The translations under genes and the position numbers were made by a program. The notes beneath the pieces are model-generated. The model was not told where the DNA came from, did not search any database, and was given only the letters and a program-made list of their open reading frames with translations. Shown piece after piece: positions 36,100 to 49,483 of a stretch of DNA of 64,000 nt. Origin of the DNA: Sarea resinae (lineage: Eukaryota); the NCBI GenBank assembly GCA_026026165.1, contig JAPEUD010000006.1, forward strand, positions 248,001 to 312,000, in the 5' to 3' direction. The number at the start of each line of letters is the position of its first letter. Within the stretch, counting starts at the first letter, position 1.

Positions 36100-36722
36100 C
36101 CACCTCTCTCTCTGTTTTCAGTCTTCTTTTCTCCTCTTACTCTACCTCTGCCTCTCTTCTCCCTTCTACTTCTTTTTCTCTCTCTTCTATTCTGTGCCAC
36201 TAGAGTCTTAGAGTCTTAGAGACCTAGAGAAAATACCAAGCACAGATAGAGATTTCTACTATCTCTAAGCACTCTCTCCTTTCTCTTCTCTCTTCTATTG
36301 TGTGCCACTAGAGTCGTAAAGACCTAGAGTTAAAAGATTACATAGGTATATATAGGTAGATAGAGAACCCTACTATGTATCTCTAAACATACTCTCCTAC
36401 TACTACCTTGTTATTATCTCCTCTCTCCTCTTTCTTAACCTTAATCTCTCTTACTCTATCTCTCTTCTCTCTTCTCTCTTCTCTCTTCTCTCTTCTCTCT
36501 TCTCTCTGCTCTCTTCTCTCTTCTCTCTTCTCCACCTCTCTATTATATGCTAGTAGAGTCTTAGAGACCTAGAGACCTAGCAACCTAGCAATCCACTATT
36601 AGAGACTAAAAAATATTAACTGTAAATTAAGAATCTTATTATCTCTTTCTCTCTCTTTTCTCTCTCTTCTCTCTCTCTCTCTTACTCCTTACACTCTACC
36701 TCTCTCTTCTCTCTCTACTTAC

Positions 36723-36820
<98 letters not shown>

Positions 36821-37600
36821 GCACGCACTTGCACATAGAAGTCTAGAGCCTAGAGCCTAGAGCCTAGAGCCTAGAGCCTAGAAACTAAAACTAAAAAAAC
36901 TAAAAAAAACTAAATTTTAGAAACTAGAAAACTAGGTGATTCTACTCTCTCTAGTTCTAAATGCTTACCTCTTAGTTCTTAAGTCTCGAATTAAAGATAA
37001 AAAAAGAGAGATAAGAGAGAAAGAGAGAAAGAGAGAAAGAGAGTAAGAGTAGAGTAGTACAGAAGAGAGAGAGAGATATATATCCTCTAAGTATAAACAG
37101 AAGAAAGAAGAAGAAGAAGAAGAAGAAGAGAGTAAGTAAGTAACAACCTAGAGAGACCTTAATAAGTAAGGCTAACAGAAAACAGAGAGTAGGTAGAGAG
37201 TAAGAAACAAGTAAGAGAGAAACTCAAAGAAGAGAAAGGAAATCAGAAAGAAATAGAGAGGTTTAAAAAGAAAAGAAGAAAGAGAGAGAGAGAAATAGAG
37301 AGAGAGAGAGAGAGATTTAAGATTAGATTTCTTTTAGATGTAAGAGGTACTATGTTTTTAGATGTCCTTTTTTCCTCTACTCTTAGATATATATATATCT
37401 ATATATAAAAGTGTATGTCGGTGGATATTCAACTATATACTAAGGGGTTTTTAGATAAGATTAGATATCTAACGTTCTATTATTCTTGCTAGGTGTGGTG
37501 TTGTAGTGTTGTAGTGTTGTGTTGCTTTGCCGTTGGATTAATTGAGTGATGAATGGATTTTGATTGGAGATTAGCTTTGTCTATAGTTATTGCTAGTCTA
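36100..37600. repeat. AT-rich low-complexity island: degenerate tandem unit, (CTCTT)n, (CA)n(CT)n, (CTAGAGC)5, (GAA)n, (GA)n; RIP-like decay
   Basis: TpA-rich and almost free of CpG. Unit tgtgccactagagtc at 36193 and 36301, with a mutated copy at 36546. (CA)n(CT)n at about 36730-36815. CTAGAGC x5 at 36843-36877. Confidence 0.85.
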
Positions 37601-37752: not shown

Positions 37753-38917
37753 CTAATGCCCCTGGATGTTCTTCGGCAGATACGGCTCCTCGAGATACTT
37801 AATCTCCTCCTCGCTCAGCTTGAACTTGACGCTCTCGACGGCGTCATCGATACGCTCCTTCGAGCTGAGGCCCACGATCGGATTGTCGCCCTTGGCAAGC
37901 GCCCAGCCAATGGCCACCGTCGCCATCTTGACGCCGTGCTTCTTCGCCACCTCCTCGACCCGGTCGACGATGGCCTTGTCCACGGCATTCTCCCGCTGTG
38001 CCAGCAGCAGCGCCAGGAACTTGTCCGTCTGCTCCCGCTTGGTGTCACGCTGGGACCAGGGCCGAGCGAGCGCGCCCCGGGCGATCGGCGACCACGGGAT
38101 CCGGCCCACGCCCGTGGCCTGGCAGTAGGGAATCATCTCGCGCTCTTCCTCGCGGTAGAGCAGGTTGTGGTAGTTCTGCATGCTGATGAACTGGTGCCAG
38201 CCGTTGGCCGCGGCGATGTTCTGGAGCTGCTGGAATTCCCAGGCGTACATGCTCGAGGCGCCGATGTAGCGCACCTTGCCGGACTCGACCACGTCGTTGA
38301 GCGCCTTCATGATCTCCTTTTTCGGCGTCGACCGGTCGAGCCGGTGGATCTGGAGCACGTCGATGTACGTGCCCAGCCGGCTGACGGAGCTGTCGACGGC
38401 GTCGAGGATGTGCTTGCGCGACAGGCCCACCAGGTTGGTGTTCTCACCGTCGTTGGTGGACGCCGCCACCATGTCGTGGCCGCCCGACGGGTCCACGCCG
38501 AAGTAGCATTTCGTCAGGATCGTGACTTTGGAGCGGGGGATGTTATATTTCTTGAGGGCTTTGCCGACGATTTCCTCGGACCGGCCGTTGGAGTACATGT
38601 CGGCCGTGTCCCAGGTTCGGAGGCCGACTGTTTCGGTCTTCAGTACTGCATCTGGACGGGATGCATTGGATCATCATTACCTTTGTAGGCGTGCTCGAAG
38701 AGAGGCAGAGCTTCGTCCTCGTTGAGCACCCATTTCTGCCACGTGTCGGAGCCGTAGGACATGCACCCTAAGATGATCTTGGAGATCTTGAGGCCGGATG
38801 AGCCGAGGCTGGGGATATCGCCGTCAGCTTCAATTGACACTTCTTGAACCGTATTGAATCCTTGACAGAGAGGAATCAAACGTACTTGGTGTATTCCATC
38901 TTGTTTTCCGTGGCCAT
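37753..38917 (-). CDS. Aldo-keto reductase (aryl-alcohol dehydrogenase-like), 3 exons
   Basis: MEYT|NLGSSGLKISKIILGCMSYG, TWDTADMYSNGRSEEIVG, LGTYIDVLQIHR, GKVRYIGASS, QNYHNLLYREEEREMIP. Introns near 38809-38885 and 38628-38680. Confidence 0.93.
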
Positions 38918-39959
38918 CTTGAAGGCTTGGTGCACGAGGTGGGCGTCTAAGTGAGGGGTGAACTGTATTGGATTGAATTGATGGAGTGGATGAAATAAAT
39001 GAGGGTGTTGCCTCTATCGAGAAGGGATGGGGGCTAGGAATTTATATGCGTGGCTGATAGCGTTAGCTTGCGAAAAGGAGGGGTTTCTATCTAATTGAGT
39101 GCAGCAAGAGCATCGCTCAGGACATCTTTCGTCATCAAAACCCAAGGATCGATTGGCGAGGATCGCATCTAGGCGACTCTCGCGGCCGCATGTCATGTGG
39201 GGACGCCTTCCACACCGCATCCCCAGAAGCTTCGAAACTCTTACCTCCGGGGTCGTACGCAGGACGCAATTGCTTTCTCCTTTTTCTGAATGGAGCGCAG
39301 AGTGACTCTAGGAGAATGCGGTCACATTTCCGCTGTAGAGATTGACCCACCGTGAATTAAAGAAGTGCTTGACTGTCAGCAGATCGGCGGCCTCGACGGC
39401 GTTAGGCGGACTTAAGCCGGACTGGCCGGGAGTGTGTAGATGAAGCTTTACGTTACCAGCCCGCCTGGATGCTTGCTGATAACAGAATGAGTCACCGTGC
39501 TCCCGTTTGGGAGTCCACTGTTCTGGTTTCGATGATGGTCGAGGATGCTCTTCGTATGCCCTTCTCTCCAGTAATGCACCACCATACGGTCCATCGAGGC
39601 AGCAAGATTGAAGTATGTGTTGCAGAGACAATGCAATGCAGAACAGCCCCTCTGCCTGAATCTATGGACCTATGGAATCGAGCTGCCCTGCATACATGAT
39701 ACAAAAAGGAGAGACCGAGACGACTACAAACGAAAAAGAGAAACCAGTGGTATAATCCATTCCCGTCCTCCCGCCTGATACCTCGCATATCATACCATGC
39801 CATTCCATACCATACCGTATCTTCCTGCTATCCACGTCAGCATCCCGTTCCTCGAGACCCTTCATGCCTCGTCCTGCAGATATCAAGGGTTCAGGTCAAA
39901 CCTCCTAGGCTTTGCCCGCATGTCTCCATCTGCTACCCACCCTAAGCATAATACGAGCC

Positions 39960-41195
39960 TCATCCAAGCCTGACAAACACTTCCTCCCCCTCGCCTTCGC
40001 CTTCTCCCTCCGCTTCTGCACCAATCTTCCCCCCCTTCCCTCCCAGAAGACCATGGCCCTCATCGTCATCATCATCGTCGATTAGCCCCCGCACTCTGGC
40101 CTCAGTGGTGCTAGGTCTCCTCTCCTTCTTGCTCTTACTGCCTTTCTCTTTCTTATTCCCGGCTCCCAACTTTCTCATTTGGCCGTTTCCACTCATACCC
40201 ATGAATGGATTGTCATTTGCGCCATCACCGCCGCCAGTACCGAATCCGATCGCCCCCTGGCCTTCCGCACCGGAGTCATCTTCATCGGTTGACCATTGAT
40301 CATCTTCTCCTTGCTCCCCCTTCTCCGTAGCTTGCACCAGTGCCTCCTCTTCAGACGAAGACGAGCTTGATGAGGACGTCGAGTCAGACTTCGACGGTCG
40401 GCTTGACCGGTGCCGCGTGAAGAGGTCCGAGAACATGGATGCGGAATTGGAAGGACGCGGTTGTGCTTCAGCTCCGGCGTTGGAGGAGCCGGTGTTGTTG
40501 GCATCAGTAGTAGAGCCAGAGGACGACAAAGGTCGCGACGTACGCCTATGATGGCGAGGACGTGGGTGATGGTGATGAGTAATATGAGGTTGGTGCGGTG
40601 GGTGGTGAGGAAGGTGTGCCTTACCCACACTGTCTCCCCCACTCTCACTGTTTTCACTAGAAGCAGCGTTCGCAAAGCCTGGCACGCCGGACTCGTTACT
40701 AGGCAACCGTCTCAGCCTGGGCATATCGCCAATGAGATCCAAGCCAGCAGTCTCGGAATCAGAGCCTAGGCCCATCTCGACGTCCTCGAGCCCTTCGACC
40801 TCATCTAGACCCTCGACCTGGCCGAAATCTAGCTCTTCAACCTCTGCACCCTCCCATCCGTCGTCTTCATCATCCTCATCGCCAGTGGTAGTGGCAGTGG
40901 CATTATTGCGACCTGCATCTCTTTCCCCCTTTCCGTGAGAGGAGTCGTTCTTGACTTCTAGGTTGCCGTGTCGCTGACGTTCAGCTTCCTCGCGCTCGCG
41001 ACGTGTACGCATAGCAAGACGAGCGGCTAGTTGACGGCGGGCGCGCGAAGGAGGAATATTGAGAGGTGCAGGTGCATTGGAGGAAGGGGGTGGCGGAGGA
41101 GGGGCGTTCGGTGGAGGGGTCTGGCTGTCGGAAGGGTTGTTGCTGTTGATGCTGAGAGGCGAGGATGATGAAAGGGAAGAGATATAACGTGCGAA
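39960..41195 (-). CDS. Putative alternative last exon of the SAPS gene (411 aa, acidic and low-complexity)
   Basis: Branch point GCTGAC (~41220) and acceptor TACAG|TTC at 41196/41195 are in phase with donor CAA|GTGGGT at 41737. The reading frame is open from FARYISS to EEVFVRLG* and has no convincing start of its own. Confidence 0.7.
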   Translation of the reverse strand, partial: FARYISSLSSSSPLSINSNNPSDSQTPPPNAPPPPPPSSNAPAPLNIPPSRARRQLAARLAMRTRREREEAERQRHGNLEVKNDSSHGKGERDAGRNNATATTTGDEDDEDDGWEGAEVEELDFGQVEGLDEVEGLEDVEMGLGSDSETAGLDLIGDMPRLRRLPSNESGVPGFANAASSENSESGGDSVGKAHLPHHPPHQPHITHHHHPRPRHHRRTSRPLSSSGSTTDANNTGSSNAGAEAQPRPSNSASMFSDLFTRHRSSRPSKSDSTSSSSSSSSEEEALVQATEKGEQGEDDQWSTDEDDSGAEGQGAIGFGTGGGDGANDNPFMGMSGNGQMRKLGAGNKKEKGSKSKKERRPSTTEARVRGLIDDDDDDEGHGLLGGKGGKIGAEAEGEGEGEGEEVFVRLG

Positions 41196-41692
41196 CTGTA
41201 ATGAGTGGAATACTATGTCAGCACCGGTCTTTGCATTCGCTCGACAGGGGAAGGTCCAACAAGAAGAGTAGAGCAGTGAAAACCAGAAGGAAAGACGAAG
41301 AAATGGGGGGCAAGAGATCATCATCTCGTCATGTTTTAGAACATGAGGGGCTAGAAAGTCAATACAAATTACATAAGAGAAGGGTGGGACGGAGCTTTGC
41401 GGTGCGGTGGCGGCGGTAGAGACTTGCAATGACATTAATATGGCTGTTGAAATACATGATCTTGAATCGAAAGGCCGCCCCGCCCATAAGATCTTTTCTT
41501 TTACTATGCAAGCTCTATCACCCGTCCCCCACACCATCGCCCCTGGAATGCCCCCCACCGTCCGTCAAAGTAAGTCTTAGAGAAAAAACGTATGTGCAGG
41601 AAGGTATGGACAAAGTAAAGCCATGGTGGTCGCATCGCAAAGAGTCGCCCCGCGTAGATGGAAAAGAGATCATGAGATGCAGAGAGGAAAAA

Positions 41693-44600
41693 TCACCGAT
41701 AACCCATTTCGACGTCTTCAAAGGAAAGTTCACCCACTTGGTCAGAAGAGTTGATGGCCGACAGATTGCGCGTGCCCTCGTCTTCCTCGGCTTCTTCCAT
41801 CTCTTCGTCCTCCTCGTCGCTCGAGCTGCCAAAGCCGCTGAGAAGGGACCCTCCACCGAGACTGAAGCCACCAGGAGCGCTACTAGCAAGATCCATGCTG
41901 TCAAGACCAGAGCTCCCGCCTCCATTTAGGCCGGCGTCGGCCAGGGCAGACGATGCGCCATTCCCAAATCCTTGGGCTGCATTGACTGCATTCATGACTG
42001 CTTGACGCGGGCCCACCGATAGGTCAGGACGGACGCCACCTAGGATTGCATTGTCTCTTTCTCGGGTCTCTGCGAGCGTCTGCTCGACGTAATTAATCCA
42101 TTCCTCACTGATGACCTTGTCGAGCACAGATTGAGACAACAGCTCAGCCGGATGGCGCTCAGTGAACTTGACGACCTCTTCTGCGATGAGAGTGAGATGA
42201 CCCATGTACCCCAATCGCAGATTCGTCTCTGCCTGTGCTTTATCGCTCCGCTCTTGTCCCTCAACGATCCGATGAATGATACGCCCCGTCTCGAAAAGAT
42301 CTATGGCAAGCTGTCGGTTGTAGCCACGGTCCATCGGACCATTGAAGACCTGCTGAACGACATCGTATACTACATTGTGAAGAAAATTGTTCCATGGGAA
42401 ACGGAAGAAGAAGTCCTAAAGACCAGTCAGCTATGGGAAGAGGCGTGAGATGGTGGACCTACCAGTATCGTGGGGACTACTCGGTGTTTGACAAACATTA
42501 TCTTCAAAAAGTCGCCTACTACCGGCGATCCATCGATGTCAGTCTCGATGAGCGGCTCGAAGCCAGTCTCGTCACCGCTCATCAAGATCGACCGTGAGCT
42601 GTCACCCTCCGCTCCATGAGAAGTCTCGGCCGTCTCACGACCGTCGCTTTGACTCTGTTCTTGACTAAAGTTCGGTGCGCTGCTCTCTGCCTCTTCTGAT
42701 TGGGTCGATTGTTCCCGATTTTCGAAAAGCGGTGCCGGCTTATCAGTGGGATGTGGTGATAATGTAGTTTCACTGCTCGATGTGCGGACTTCAGTATCCT
42801 CGCTCTGTGCAGTGCCTTGGACCGGAGCAGAAGTTTCGCTGCTTTCGCTGCTTTCCGCTGGAGCCTCTGCGGAACCAGGAGGGTCTAGCTCGCTCGTTTC
42901 ATCACCAGCCATGACTGTATCTTTCTCCAGCTCTAAACCGTCGACTCTGTCCGTTAGTCCAGCGGTTGTAGGCGAATTTGGTCCACGATCATCCAATTCT
43001 GGTACCGGTAGAAGAGAACTCTCGTCTCCGACATTATTCTTTTCATGCTTGGCCTCCAAGCCAGGTGACGATAGAGGCTCGTCGACGAAGTCATCTTCGG
43101 AGCCGCCAACGTCTGCAAAAGGATCCTTCTCAGATGGCTTGGATTCATCCTCGTCTGGCTTCTCATCAAAATCATCCTTGACTTCTTCGTTGAGAACCCC
43201 AGAGACGGTCACATCCTCGAATCCGTCTTCCTCCCCTCTATTTTGTACTTCGAGCTTCCTGCCCTCTGGAGATCTTGATTCCATTGCTGAGGGTGAGTAT
43301 CGGTCGTCCTCGATGGGAGTATGCGCTCTAGAATGGTTTCTATGAACAGAAAATTTACCCTCCGCCTTCAGGCGCTCTCGCTCCACGTCCCTTTCCTTGA
43401 CAAAGGCTTCACTTCCTCTCTCGTTGAGTAGACCCATGTTACTGCAATGGAGAAGCTCCGCCATTAGTTCGCATGTCTTGAATCTATCAAAGCCCAAGGG
43501 TTCGATGGCCTTTCCAAATGCTACTTTGAGCTCTTTCCGTCTGACAGTAGTCGTGCCATCTTCACCGGTCACTGTGTGATTGGGACTCAATATTAAGTCC
43601 ATAAAGTCGGGCACGTGTTTGGCGAATTCGCGAAGCAGAGTGCCGAGGTAGATGGGATCGTGGCTGGATGGTGTCGAGTCAGCTCCCGTCCCAACGTCTG
43701 GGTCATAATCAGAGTTGTTTTTCCGAATGACCTCGATGACAATGCCAACTCCGACAGTGAGCGGATTTCCGCCCTGGAGCATATCCGAGATTAGATTCCT
43801 GACACAAGGCTCGGAGACTAGTTGTCTCGTGAGGTCATTAGGACCTATGCACGATTGCTCATTCTGTGACGCATTGGCTGAGATAGTGATGACAGCTTTC
43901 AGGAAGTCTCCGGCCGAAGTCTGAGTGCTGGGAGTCTGGTCGGGGGAAAGGTAGGCTAGTAGTATAGGTATGAGGTCTTTAGATTGTAGCCACTAACCAA
44001 GGAGTGTCAGCATAAGGTGGCCTCGAACGTAGAACGTTGAGTAAAGCACATACATCGACAATTCCCTGGCCGTATTCTACCTTCTCTAAGCTGATGATCT
44101 TCAGCAAAAGGTCCATAACCATTGGGCAGTCGACGTGCTGCAACATGTCGGGCACAATGTTGTCCAAAGACTTGAAGAATTCCAGCATCTCCTCGGTCTT
44201 CTTGTCTAAGAGCGTCTCGTTAATCTTGGTGAAGTAGCTAGCTTGCAAAGGGTCGAGCGAAGGTTTCCGTTTCAAAAATGCCCAGAAATCTCGCAAGTGT
44301 TGCTGGTTTTCCATCAGAGCTTCGATTATCGACCAAGTCTCCGAGGACAAGACTTCACACGCCACATAGGCGTATTTCAATCTCAGCTTATCCTCCTTCT
44401 CTTTGTCTTCCTCGTTTTTGTCCGACTCCTTTGACTTTCTCTTCTCTCCAGCGTCGCCACCTTGCTCGGCTCCCTCGGAATTGATATCGCGGTCTTCGTC
44501 ATCGTCGTATGGGCTCGGCGCAGTGACGTATTCTAGAAGTCGTCGTAATATGTTTTCATCGCGGAGGTATTCTATCAGTTTCGAGTTATTCTGCTTTAGC

Positions 44601-44710
44601 TCCTGGATCAAGTCGGATTCATCGAGGAGCTCTTCAAGTGTGACATCGGGCTTATCAAGGATCGTATCTAGCGTCGATATATTGGCGTAACCGCCAAACC
44701 GCCAAAACAT
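41693..44710 (-). CDS. SIT4/PP6 phosphatase-associated protein (SAPS family, Sap155/185/190/Ekc1-like), short isoform
   Basis: MFWRFGGYANISTLDTILDK, LLDESDLIQELK, IGPNDLTRQL, EPLGFDRFKTCELMAELLHCSNM, FFRFPWNNFLHNVVYD, RLGYMGHLTLIAEEVVKF. Introns near 43995-44054 and 42417-42461. Confidence 0.93.
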
Positions 44711-46473
44711 GATGAGTGAAGGGCTGACCGCAAGTGATCAGCGTTGACGGCGATGTGTGAAGGGAACTCGTATCAAGGCGGATCGCTGGAACGATTCAGT
44801 TCTGCATGCGACCTGACGTGAAGAGTTTCGGTCGAGAAATGACTGCAAGGATCTGGAAGATGGTATCTGCTGCTGCGATAAGGCGAGGCTGCGCTCGACG
44901 TGTTCAAGGAATGAAGTAATCCTCTCAACGCCTCAGTCTGCCGCAAGACAATTGCTGTCAGCTTTATATCCATACTTTGTAGAGCCTTTCTGATCACAAG
45001 ATATGAGGACATGGGGGTTCATGAGGAGAGCTCGCCATAGAACGGCATCAGACAGAATGCAAGTATCCATGAGATCAACGGTTTCTTCGGGGGATATTGC
45101 TCACCTAGAGAGATCATGAACTCGAGCGCGGACGAGAGAAAGTGATGATCAAAGGTTGAATCGCAAATAGAATCGTGACAGGCGTGGTTGATTGGTCTCG
45201 TAAGGTGTTGTGGATGGCGGATGGAAACGGCGAGTGAGCTGGCGTCGGGAGCGGCAGCGAGTAATGAGTGAAAAAGGCCCAACAGAGGTACAGTTACAGC
45301 ACCAGTAATTGGACCCTTGATATCAGGCTGCACGGTATTGAGCTTGGAGATGGGAGCATGAGGAGGTTCGGTGTCGTCGGGGCTGGCTGGTCGGTCGAGA
45401 TAGATGGTGTTTCGGTCGATCGTAGTACCCCATGGATCTCCCTCGAGATTAAAGTGGATCGTCTTCTGTTTGGATGTCGGTGACTGTGTCTACTACGTAC
45501 AGTCAGGTTCGGTGTCGCTGTGATGCAAGCTGTGTGTCTGGCCGTGTGGAGTCGCACTACATATATCGAGTACGAAGTACCGTACACGGGACCACCACCT
45601 GCACTGGGCACCACCTACTACCCAAAGTAGACGGTACTTGTGCTAGGAATCACTGGCATTCTTTTCTACAAGCATCAGTTCCCTTCCAGGGCGTTTCCCA
45701 CACAGATCATCATGATCAGTGGCATCAGTGGCATCAGTCGATCTCGTCATTTTTCCGATGCTTGGGTAACTATATGGTGTTGTTCAGTGTGATCGATCGA
45801 GCATGCTCGGAATACTAGATAGGTAGTGCCCTGATGCGGCTGGTAGAGGTACGAATCGAGAACCGAACAGGACTCATCCAACAGTACCGGATCCTCTCCT
45901 GTCAATGACATTTGAACCTCCGCATGCGACAACCGAAAGAAGCCCGTGATAAAGGAGCAGATTATCGATGATAGCTCGGGTGCTTGCGCTCCTCAAGAAG
46001 AAGCAAGCTCGGAATCCCAAGGACCTACCTGTCTAGGTACCTTAGATAGTGAGGGCCAACTCCTGAAATGATCCTGTCTTCCGTAGCTCGAATGATACCT
46101 AAGTAGAACCGTCTTCCCCTTTCCTGTGGCCAAGGTGAATGGCATACTACGTAGTAGGTCGCTCGGCGAACTCGCGTGGCCCTTTAGACACACCCCCGTG
46201 CATGTCACGGGGTTCGCAGTCGAGCTCGCCAAACTGCGTTGGCCCATGCGCCCCGCCAGCCCGTAGTGACGAACGACCAAGCAACGTAACATCCAGCACC
46301 GACTACGAATCCAGGCACCTATCGCAATAATAAGCTACTTTATCATCGAGCTTCAAAATCCTACACTCACCATATGGGCTCCTAAGCTTATGCGACACCC
46401 CCATCAGATCTGAGATCTCCATCTCCCGTTTCCTAGACCACCTTGCCCACCCCCCACCCCCCCCACCGTGACC

Positions 46474-47190
46474 ATGAACCGCCTCTTCGGATCCAAATCC
46501 ACCGCCCCAAAACCCACCCTCAACGGCGCCATCTCCAATGTACTACCCCCCCACCCCCCAACCAAACCCTTCCACAGACCTCCACTGCTAACACAATATG
46601 CACAGGTGGACACGCGGATCGAGTCGATCGACGTCAAATTGGCCAAACTAAACGCAGAACTAACAACATACCAATCGCGACTCTCCAAACTACGGCCGGG
46701 GCCAGGCAAAAACGCCCTGAAATCCAAAGCGCTGAAAGTGCTCCAGCAGCGCAAATTGTACGAGTCGCAGCGCGAGCAGCTTCAGCAGCAGTCGTGGAAC
46801 ATGGAGCAAGCAGGCATGATGCAGGACAACCTGACCAACGTCATGACGACCGTCGACGCCATGAAGACGACCACCAAGAGCTTGAAGAAACAGTACGGCA
46901 AGATCAATATCGATAAGATCGAGAAGATGCAGGACGAGATGGCTGATCTGATGGATGTTGGGAACGAGATCCAGGAGAGCATTTCGCGGAGCTATGATGT
47001 GCCCGATGAGGTGGATGAGGACGAGTTGGATGCCGAGTTGGAGGCGCTGGGAGAGGAGGCCGAGTTTGAGGGATTGAATGCGGGTGGGGAGTCTGAGACG
47101 CCGGGCTTTTTGGTTGATGAAGTCAAGGCGCCTGAGTTTGTGGATGAGCCGCCTGAGATGGGCGGGAAGGTTCAGGAGGTGGCAAGGTGA
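46474..47190 (+). CDS. VPS60: ESCRT-III subunit Vps60/CHMP5 (Snf7 family), 2 exons
   Basis: MNRLFG, LQQQSWNMEQA, IDKIEKMQDEMADLM, SRSYDVPDEVDEDELDAELEAL. A 66-nt in-frame intron lies at 46540-46605 (GTACTA..GCTAAC..CAG). Confidence 0.95.
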   Translation: MNRLFGSKSTAPKPTLNGAISNVLPPHPPTKPFHRPPLLTQYAQVDTRIESIDVKLAKLNAELTTYQSRLSKLRPGPGKNALKSKALKVLQQRKLYESQREQLQQQSWNMEQAGMMQDNLTNVMTTVDAMKTTTKSLKKQYGKINIDKIEKMQDEMADLMDVGNEIQESISRSYDVPDEVDEDELDAELEALGEEAEFEGLNAGGESETPGFLVDEVKAPEFVDEPPEMGGKVQEVAR

Positions 47191-47644: not shown

Positions 47645-48874
47645 TCAAAAATCTTCAATAGTAGTCCCAACGCCCATCTCCCTAGCCAACGCCACTACAT
47701 CACCACCGACGACCAGATCCATAAGCCCCATTCCAACACTCTTATATATGACATTGCCCTTAGCCAACCACTCCCTCAGCCCATCGCTCCCTGCTTCCCC
47801 ACCACGGCCATTACTTTCCAAACTAGATTCATCGACTGGCTCTACCTCCTTGAGCCCCATAGCCTGCTTCTTTAACATCATCAGCTCTCCTACTTCAACG
47901 AGCTGATGCGGCCCCAACCCCGCTTGGATGATCTCGCCTGCTTCCTTGAGACAGGCATCAAGGCTATCCACTATCACAACACCGCCCTGTGTCGCGTGTT
48001 TGTGATGGTGGCGCGTATGCGGGGGCGCGGTGGCCTGACGCAATATGTCCGGATGCAGTTCGCACATGTGGGGTTTGTAGGAGCCTATGGCGACGAGAAG
48101 GCGACCTTTTCGCCGCCCTTCGTGCGAAGTAAGGCATTCTGGCGGAAAAAGTGCTGTCGTGGCCGGTGTACAGGTGAAGATCACGTCTGCCTTACGAACG
48201 TCCTCTTTGAGCACTCGAGCGTATTCGCCGTAATCCGCAGTCAAAACCGTGAATTTGGTGGCTCCGCGAAAGGAATCAGCGTCCTCCGAGTAGAAAGATT
48301 GGAGAAGGCGTTGGGCAGGGGCGAAAGAGCGGTTGATGATATTGACGCGTTTGATTTCAGGACCGCGGAGGAGGAGAGCCAAACGAATGTGCCAATAGGC
48401 TTGTTTGCCGGCGCCAAAGACGGTTATGTTTGAGACGTGGGTGCGACGTGTGAAGAGCAAGGTCCCCGCTAGGGCGGTGCGGAACGCGGTCAATTCCTCG
48501 GCATTGAGGAGACCGGTAGGGCTACCGGTTGCATCGAGGAGAGTGAGAGAGCCGCGCGGCGTAGTGGTGGCGCTGGTGACTGCTGCGGTCGAAGGCGAGA
48601 TGGAGGTGGAGGTGGAGCTCCCAGACAGAGTTACGATTTTCATGCCTATTGAAGTGCTAGTACTAGCAGGCATAAAGAGCGTAGTTGAGCCATTCATGGG
48701 CGAGATCGAGGTTCGCGGCGGCTGATACATGGAGCAGCAGCCATCATCTTGATTGCCAGTTGAGTAAGCGTGCAGAGCATCGGCAAGGGACCTCTGGAGC
48801 TGGACAACGTCATCACGCTGGAGCGAGTTGAGAACAGACCGGACCTCGGAGTCAGTGAGGATGGTAAGAGGCAT
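47645..48874 (-). CDS. Ornithine cyclodeaminase/mu-crystallin family protein (PrnX-like)
   Basis: Single exon. TTLFMPA..GMKIV, LNAEELTAFRTALA, VFGAGKQAYWH, AIGSYKPHM, VDSLDACLKEAGE, YKSVGMGLMDL. Confidence 0.88.
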   Translation of the reverse strand: MPLTILTDSEVRSVLNSLQRDDVVQLQRSLADALHAYSTGNQDDGCCSMYQPPRTSISPMNGSTTLFMPASTSTSIGMKIVTLSGSSTSTSISPSTAAVTSATTTPRGSLTLLDATGSPTGLLNAEELTAFRTALAGTLLFTRRTHVSNITVFGAGKQAYWHIRLALLLRGPEIKRVNIINRSFAPAQRLLQSFYSEDADSFRGATKFTVLTADYGEYARVLKEDVRKADVIFTCTPATTALFPPECLTSHEGRRKGRLLVAIGSYKPHMCELHPDILRQATAPPHTRHHHKHATQGGVVIVDSLDACLKEAGEIIQAGLGPHQLVEVGELMMLKKQAMGLKEVEPVDESSLESNGRGGEAGSDGLREWLAKGNVIYKSVGMGLMDLVVGGDVVALAREMGVGTTIEDF

Positions 48875-49483
48875 GACGTATTATCGTTTTGATCATCTAT
48901 GTCTTGGAGGGACTTTGTATTGCGATGTTCATTTTTGAGGGTGAACAAACAGACAGTGAAACGTCCATCAATCAATTAAAGGAAAGGGATTGGCTTTGAC
49001 TTTGAGCAGTGGGTAGAGAGACATGAGAAATCATGTCAGTTGCCCATGGTGGAGACGAAGCTCAGCACGGGTCGTTGCCAAGAGCATTGGGGTGCGTCAG
49101 ATCACGGACACGAGACGATGTGGAGGGGAAAGAGTGAGTAATTCCCTTGGCGGGGCGGAGAAGAAGAGTGGAACGCGAGGGGAGATCTGGAGGGGCCGAT
49201 GATCGGATAAGATAAGATCGTCTTCGCTGATGGTGATGAAAATCCTTTTGATACCCAACCTCACTTATGTGCATACTAGGTACGGACTCATCAAGCGTTA
49301 CAAACATCATCAACAGTGACTCGTGCCATCAGACGAATTGGATATTCATTCGAAATGTGCACGCCAGAAAGAACCTCTCTCATCACTATTACAAGCCAGT
49401 CTCGGAGCCAGACCAGGCAGACAACAGGCAGCCAGAGTGAAGAACGCCAAAGGTCAATTCATTTAGTGAAATCATCAACCTAT

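Follow-up and report, generated by a model that had tools for sequence, protein, structure and literature searches.

The stretch of DNA considered here, hereafter the window, comprises 64,000 nucleotides (nt) of Sarea resinae (NCBI GenBank assembly GCA_026026165.1, contig JAPEUD010000006.1, positions 248,001 to 312,000 of the forward strand); positions below are those of the window. Its minus strand carries a gene that, by its sequence, is the genome's Sit4/PP6 regulatory subunit of the SAPS family. The encoded protein may end in either of two C-terminal tails, and the choice between these tails is the subject of this report. The gene and its alternative 3' parts are arranged as follows.

44054..44710, minus strand: SAPS exon 1, with the ATG at 44710 and a product that begins MFWRFGG...; the joined model is P0001
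43993..44053, minus strand: intron 1, 61 nt, GTATGT...TAG
42463..43992, minus strand: SAPS exon 2, inside the span of the Pfam SAPS (PF04499) match
42416..42462, minus strand: intron 2, 47 nt, GTAGGT...TAG
41738..42415, minus strand: the part of exon 3 common to both isoforms, with the end of the SAPS domain, an acidic SSSDEEDEE tract and ...SSDQ
41732..41737, minus strand: alternative 5' splice site GTGGGT, also the Val-Gly codons of the short tail; it follows CAA
41693..41737, minus strand: short tail VGELSFEDVEMGYR plus stop (TGA at 41695-41693), ending the isoform of 969 amino acids (aa)
41196..41737, minus strand: alternative intron, 542 nt; the part past 41693 is the probable 3' untranslated region (UTR) of the short messenger RNA (mRNA)
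41217..41222, minus strand: branch point GCTGAC, the sole RCTRAC within 39900-42415, spaced from the acceptor as in relatives
41196..41200, minus strand: acceptor TACAG, phase 0; the homologous acceptor is used in the complementary DNAs (cDNAs) L069 and L070
39960..41195, minus strand: long last exon, 1236 nt (411 aa plus stop), ending the 1366-aa isoform
41016..41066, minus strand: conserved motif PLNIPPSRARRQLAARL after the polyproline run, predicted to form a basic helix
40098..40121, minus strand: RRPSTTEA, a second, patchily conserved motif (RRxS)

The Pfam SAPS profile matched residues 164-852 of P0001 along its full length (E 4.8e-175; 583 bits against a cut-off of 25.6). Yeast Sap155, Sap185, Sap190 and Sap4, human PPP6R1-3 and MoSap1 have the same domain, and knowledge of this family suggests that the protein binds a Sit4/PP6 catalytic subunit. 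Exon 3 and the long exon each gave one match in the genome, where only the best candidates were scored. Translation of the joined model showed that the long exon continues exon 3 in phase 0 without an internal stop. Indeed, P0001, a public protein named Sarea resinae by its source, is letter-for-letter the spliced long form; the annotation therefore includes the long exon and lacks the short form. An earlier note on this DNA had expected the opposite error, in which the downstream open reading frame (ORF) would be split off as a separate hypothetical gene. The anatomy described in that note was confirmed: the GTGGGT donor at 41737 after ...SSDQ and the read-through into a 14-aa tail are correct to the base, the GCTGAC branch point and the TACAG acceptor 542 nt downstream do open the same phase into the 1236-nt ORF, and every motif listed for that ORF is present in its translation. 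A Pfam CDC27 match on the long tail fell below the cut-off and looks compositional.

For comparison with relatives, we used the best 80 of 207 confirmed loci from one metagenome scan, the query of which contained the short tail. The junction was compared in the window and 79 of these 80 loci, giving 80 loci in 49 sequence clusters, and the exon-3 peptides of the metagenome loci ranged down to ~62% identity with that of the window. The junction was located from the peptide alone, with Gln-Val-Gly preferred. This rule was a revision made after the first pass, in which an upstream Val had been taken in 12 of 68 de-duplicated loci and GTGGGT found in 56 of 68. The acceptor was assigned by a frame-blind rule, namely the last branch point before the motif and then the first AG. 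The rule gave no answer in 17 clusters; 11 had no motif pattern (8 of these being short contigs), four had no AG and two had no branch point.

The junction hexamer was GTGGGT in 78 of the 80 loci and in 48 of the 49 clusters, and the exception, GTGAGC, is donor-like too. Of 39 Val-Gly pairs at other places in exon 3, taken as controls, none was encoded by this hexamer (expectation from codon usage, 0.049). It was likewise found at none of 43 ordinary intron 2 donors, of which 20 were GTAAGT. GTAGGT, which also encodes Val-Gly and serves as the donor of the window's own intron 2, never occurred at the junction in the 80 loci. From the near-invariance of GTGGGT at the junction, its absence from control Val-Gly pairs and intron 2 donors, and the lack of GTAGGT, we infer that the junction hexamer is under selection as a tuned, weak donor. 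In the PVSDSEQVG-type loci (L001, L009, L013, L016, L017 and L027), Val-Ser is encoded by GTGAGY 18 nt upstream of the junction and in the same phase; this stronger donor-like site is possibly a further alternative donor.

At the other end of the intron, 30 of 32 clusters had the frame-blind acceptor in phase 0. The downstream motif was recognized by its pattern in 34 of the 37 clusters having at least 900 nt past the stop, and inspection by eye revealed a diverged motif behind the same branch point and acceptor in the remaining three, for a total of 37/37. Judged from these comparisons, the splice architecture is kept across distant lineages, and relatives have a functional 5' splice site inside exon 3, as indicated by the invariant hexamer and by the junction of protein P0032 (see below). 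Three loci (L078, L068 and L072) have an extra branch point and acceptor 235-355 nt past the first acceptor, and their long exon may be split by another intron.

Searching proteins with the C-terminal 70 aa of the short form yielded 98 matches. In many of these the sequence finishes with VGELSFEDV[ED]M[ED]YR or a variant of it; in others it passes at that very point into the long motif. The short-ended named matches include Dothideomycetes, Xylona and lichen-forming Lecanoromycetes. In 23 clusters with a 14-aa tail, this common length being the selection criterion, pairwise identity at codon positions 1, 2 and 3 was 0.75, 0.85 and 0.50 over codons 3-14, and ~0.27 past the stop. All three stop codons were used at codon 15. 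By this codon pattern, the read-through end with its own stop is coding and under selection. The pattern [WFY]xx[LIV], which in an acidic context is the consensus of the Atg8-interacting motif (AIM; also LC3-interacting region, LIR), occurs in 29 of the 49 clusters by raw count, takes the form FEDV in the window and is absent from FDDA tails. A distinct, well-conserved acidic short tail was found in Helotiales-like loci (L003-L012, L023 and L050) and in P0009, P0016, P0021, P0023, P0024 and P0035. In several gene models the splice runs from near the end of this tail to the long exon, and the resulting third form has both motifs.

When longer proteins were searched with residues 1-120 of the long exon, 38 matched; all 38 are SAPS proteins and share PPPPPLNIPPSRARRQLAARL. 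Leotiomycetes, Sordariomycetes, Geoglossum and Lecanoromycetes are represented among the long-ended named matches, as are Dothideomycetes in a third search. Proteins with each ending were also recovered in a search of protein representatives. From the motif to the stop, the tail measures 91 to 377 aa across 32 clusters. Within it, RR[PL]S(V)TTEA was seen by eye in 11 of the 32, and the His-rich and poly-Ser runs are absent from the alignment consensus. The RRxS motif is presumably of the protein kinase A (PKA) type, by its consensus. Folding was done on the relatives P0039 and P0073, the window's long form exceeding the size limit. In the P0073 model the motif is an isolated helix (residues 991-1014; predicted local distance difference test score, pLDDT, of 77-82 over 991-1010) with disordered flanks. 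A complex prediction of the long-tail helix with two halves of the P0073 SAPS domain gave no answer (score 0.00, without alignments), and an ESM Atlas feature search with P0001 980-1040 gave no usable match. The long tail has EDVEMG at 40770-40787 (minus strand), preceded by two similar acidic repeats; this hexapeptide echoes the short-tail core at 41702-41719 (15 of 18 nt alike).

Transcripts of relatives bear on the use of these sites. Four of the 80 loci (L010, L054, L069 and L070) lack intron 2 and are cDNA-like, and all four read through GTGGGT. L069 and L070 are identical to the genomic locus L076 at 3945 of 3957 and 4084 of 4097 nt, respectively. They lack three ordinary introns and, in addition, a 156-nt intron that has a GTATGC donor 284 nt past the short stop and uses the long-exon acceptor. 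The acceptor is therefore used in vivo, and a competing downstream donor can yield the short protein. L069 and L070, possibly from one study, share their exon-3 peptide with proteins named Alternaria alternata, whose models take the long junction. Relative to L057:4547-4607, an exon-3 segment of 60 nt, in frame, is missing from the cDNA L054. With the gap cut one base rightward, this segment reads GTGGGT...ACTAAC...AAG, an exitron with the same donor hexamer, and its removal takes away the conserved LLSGF..SSDE motif. Annotated P0286, P0290 and P0294 share the deletion, and the window has no branch point there.

The long form is seen in P0032 (1157 aa, from Logan only, on a 3968-nt contig), in which all three junctions are spliced. 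This protein is 95.5% identical to L011 in exon 3, and the match breaks exactly at the L011 GTGGGT donor and branch-point acceptor. P0032 is probably a cDNA, since other Logan entries read through intron 2 and the caller is apparently intron-blind. A second spliced long protein is P0027, and P0043 is a spliced short protein. Moreover, one strain has the short model and another the long one in Glarea lozoyensis (P0116/P0024) and Paraphaeosphaeria minitans (P0057/P0300). RNA of S. resinae itself comes from one run, X1, with a small share of words; its contigs cannot show ends or strand and could derive from DNA. Two of its 22 contigs are near-identical to the window. One (41423-41764, two differences) contains the short tail and the intron, unspliced, and the other (39621-40056, nine differences) contains the long stop and 3' flank. 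Their position just inside both predicted 3' ends is suggestive. Coverage is absent at 40088-41269 and over most SAPS exons and is uninformative on expression.

Taken together, these data make it likely that the weak GTGGGT donor in exon 3 chooses between two SAPS C-termini, and we would expect with similar assurance that both mRNAs are made in this organism. Use of GTGGGT would lead to the in-phase last exon, with its polyproline run, basic amphipathic helix, long disordered region and, in many lineages, RRxS. When GTGGGT is skipped, translation would continue for 14 more codons to a stop and give an acidic-hydrophobic end. The helical Sit4-binding core would be unchanged, with a short linear motif swapped for one of opposite charge.

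Several observations weigh against this proposal. The clusters are related, so that their counts are not independent trials, and the best 80 of 207 loci include none that is near the named Sordariomycete proteins. The GTGGGT donor was used in none of the four cDNA-like loci, a sample in which ranking by a short-tail query favoured read-through. The long-form transcripts are two Logan-derived proteins, P0032 and P0027, which are cDNA by inference; the two forms were observed in different species, none of which has both as cDNA. The 41738/41195 joint predicted by the earlier note was not found among the X1 contigs, where the contig overlaps the shared exon by 27 nt and the bridging rule demands 31 nt. 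The short tail also varies: that of L071 has 6 aa, the Helotiales-like loci have a different one of 42-44 aa, and those of L052, L058 and L068 are unrelated. Finally, the last 104 residues of the P0039 model, short tail included, are disordered.

Other points of the earlier note can be judged from the same data. Its view that both ends are genuine coding sequence agrees with the coding signature of the short tail and with the conservation of both peptides across relatives' loci, and when both tails were sought in related loci, the same donor hexamer, phase-0 acceptor and downstream motif recurred. Two isoforms from one SAPS gene, as it proposed, fit the two C-termini chosen at 41738/41737, but intronic polyadenylation is not the sole route, since a relative's cDNA uses a downstream donor. 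Of the large docking tail of the note, only a ~25-aa motif and RR[PL]S(V)TTEA are conserved.

It could be argued that only the long protein matters and that skipping of the weak donor makes a transcript degraded by nonsense-mediated decay (NMD), which would tune the SAPS level. A stop upstream of an exon junction, followed by a long 3' UTR, is the classic NMD layout; in L069 and L070 the short stop lies 284 nt before an exon junction and is followed by an 860-nt 3' UTR, and the tail has shrunk to 6 aa in L071. Such unproductive splicing is nevertheless improbable in our view, given that the codon pattern of the short tail is that of coding sequence and its stop is conserved in position, that the short protein retains the whole SAPS domain, and that all four cDNA-like loci of the 80 are the short form, which is not rare in those assemblies. 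We give equally little credence to the idea that each lineage makes one form, the other ending being a relic or an annotation choice. Each protein record examined does have a single ending, in keeping with the separate species of the cDNAs. Yet both endings, the donor and the in-phase acceptor coexist in the same loci, and an Alternaria-like species with a short cDNA has a long exon that is open and in phase with the proximal donor. A separate small gene at the downstream ORF, with a promoter and an ATG of its own, is most improbable: the stop-to-stop frame of this ORF does reach upstream to 41564, with four in-frame Met before the acceptor, but the first Met within the exon (aa 62) comes after the conserved motif (aa 44), the open frame of many relatives begins at the acceptor with no Met ahead of the motif, the motif is SAPS-fused in 38/38 matches to longer proteins, and relatives' transcripts splice into the exon.

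If the two-tail switch operates as proposed, the short mRNA may end in more than one way. Comparison of its predicted 3' UTR was confined to shuffled sequence, the antisense strand and the regions past the long stop and upstream of the ATG. In 32 clusters, TGTA occurred 59 times in the 250 nt past the short stop, against 28.1 +/- 5.8 when shuffled (antisense, 38 against 28.4 +/- 4.9). The count past the long stop was 82 against 44.1 +/- 5.7 in the same number of clusters, and that upstream of the ATG was 13 against 14.7 +/- 3.8. No GTRNGY donor lies between the short stop and the branch point in the window. We put polyadenylation inside the intron, for which candidate sites lie near 41425 and 41340, at an even chance for this organism; retention of the whole intron is a weaker candidate, and use of a non-canonical downstream donor is unlikely. 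NMT1-type splicing in fungi is riboswitch-controlled; here, the intron gave no Rfam match near the gathering score, and its fold z was -0.91. The window intron showed no alignment past the tail codons with two loci of similar short tail. A non-coding element, TTGGTGCGTTT, was found ~20-60 nt past the short stop in Pleosporales-like loci (~10 of 43 clusters) and is absent from the window. UGUA is an upstream polyadenylation element (PMC12667328).

Several further genes were noted in passing. The Sit4-like catalytic gene is split into many exons. PP2A-family catalytic genes L086 (G000:C82), which we take to be Sit4-like, and L089 (G000:C98) have low-complexity insertions of tens of residues in the catalytic domain. 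Near the SAPS gene, all on the minus strand and named by eye, lie an aldo-keto-reductase-like ORF (37753-38670; ~66% G+C against ~52% in its neighbours), which adjoins a long CT/GA/CA microsatellite tract (36350-37400), a Snf7/Vps60-like ORF (46414-47190) and an ornithine cyclodeaminase/mu-crystallin-like ORF (47645-48880).

Human PP6 regulatory subunits contact the catalytic subunit through the SAPS domain and their partners through the unstructured C-terminal region (PMC6363451). In yeast, four SAP paralogs with partly distinct roles divide the work of Sit4 (PMC6506691; PMC13062003), whereas Sarea has one gene (one match) with two alternative C-termini; SAPS isoforms of such a kind go unmentioned in the accessible text of these two papers. 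Rts3 targets Sit4-Sap185/190; its acidic helix occupies a cleft of positive charge in Sit4-Sap185 and inhibits the phosphatase (PMC13062003). The likeness is that Sit4-SAP is controlled by short helical motifs within disordered chains, and an acidic tail could in principle reach the cleft. Rts3, however, acts in trans, and the long-tail helix is basic and hence of opposite charge. In filamentous fungi, MoPpe1-MoSap1 has been studied as a TOR-pathway phosphatase (review PMC11541241). No description of SAPS isoforms in filamentous fungi was found in the accessible literature, of which subscription papers, supplements and genome-wide splicing or poly(A) tables are largely not part.

The SAPS switch works like a composite terminal exon, of which the immunoglobulin mu switch is an example, and is a candidate for the class of intronic polyadenylation proper. 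As in composite terminal exons and coding-region alternative polyadenylation (CR-APA), use of a 5' splice site within a possible last exon is in competition with reading on to a stop codon (PMC12667328), and the skipped SAPS intron resembles a 3' UTR in TGTA content. Unlike CR-APA, however, the short SAPS protein of one relative is made by use of a downstream donor together with the distal 3' end. SKI7/HBS1 and PTC7 are likewise old splice choices kept across fungal lineages, with two proteins per gene. PTC7, also a phosphatase, relies on retention of an in-frame intron close to its N-terminus. In SKI7/HBS1 the choice is between alternative 3' sites, whereas in the SAPS gene a weak 5' site overlapping coding sequence would pick the C-terminus. 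Those two cases were demonstrated by reverse transcription PCR (RT-PCR), and SKI7/HBS1 also by Western blot, while the SAPS switch is known from sequence comparison and relatives' transcripts (PMC3597508 for both).

Few splice choices in fungi both change the protein and are deeply conserved; PMC3597508 gives SKI7/HBS1 and PTC7 as its examples, and the SAPS gene may be another of this kind. In practical terms, some genomes are annotated with the short form and others with the long one, including genomes of a single species, and C-terminal tags or complementation clones may catch only one isoform. By analogy with partner binding by the human PP6 tail, docking of Rts3 in the cleft and the division of labour among yeast SAP paralogs, the motif swap might, on about even terms, give the holoenzyme another partner, location or activity; in budding yeast this task is shared by four SAP paralogs. 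More tentatively, the switch could be ancestral to Pezizomycotina and yield two opposed forms. One would carry its acidic end in cis, as a built-in Rts3, or have it bound by a reader of acidic motifs, and the other would be retargeted by the basic helix and the PKA-type site. Nutrient or TOR signalling would set the ratio of the two by way of splicing and 3'-end factors, in place of the diversified paralogs of yeast and animals. Two natural tails on an identical core would offer a direct test of whether the unstructured tail of a PP6 regulatory subunit selects its partners, the question raised in PMC6363451.

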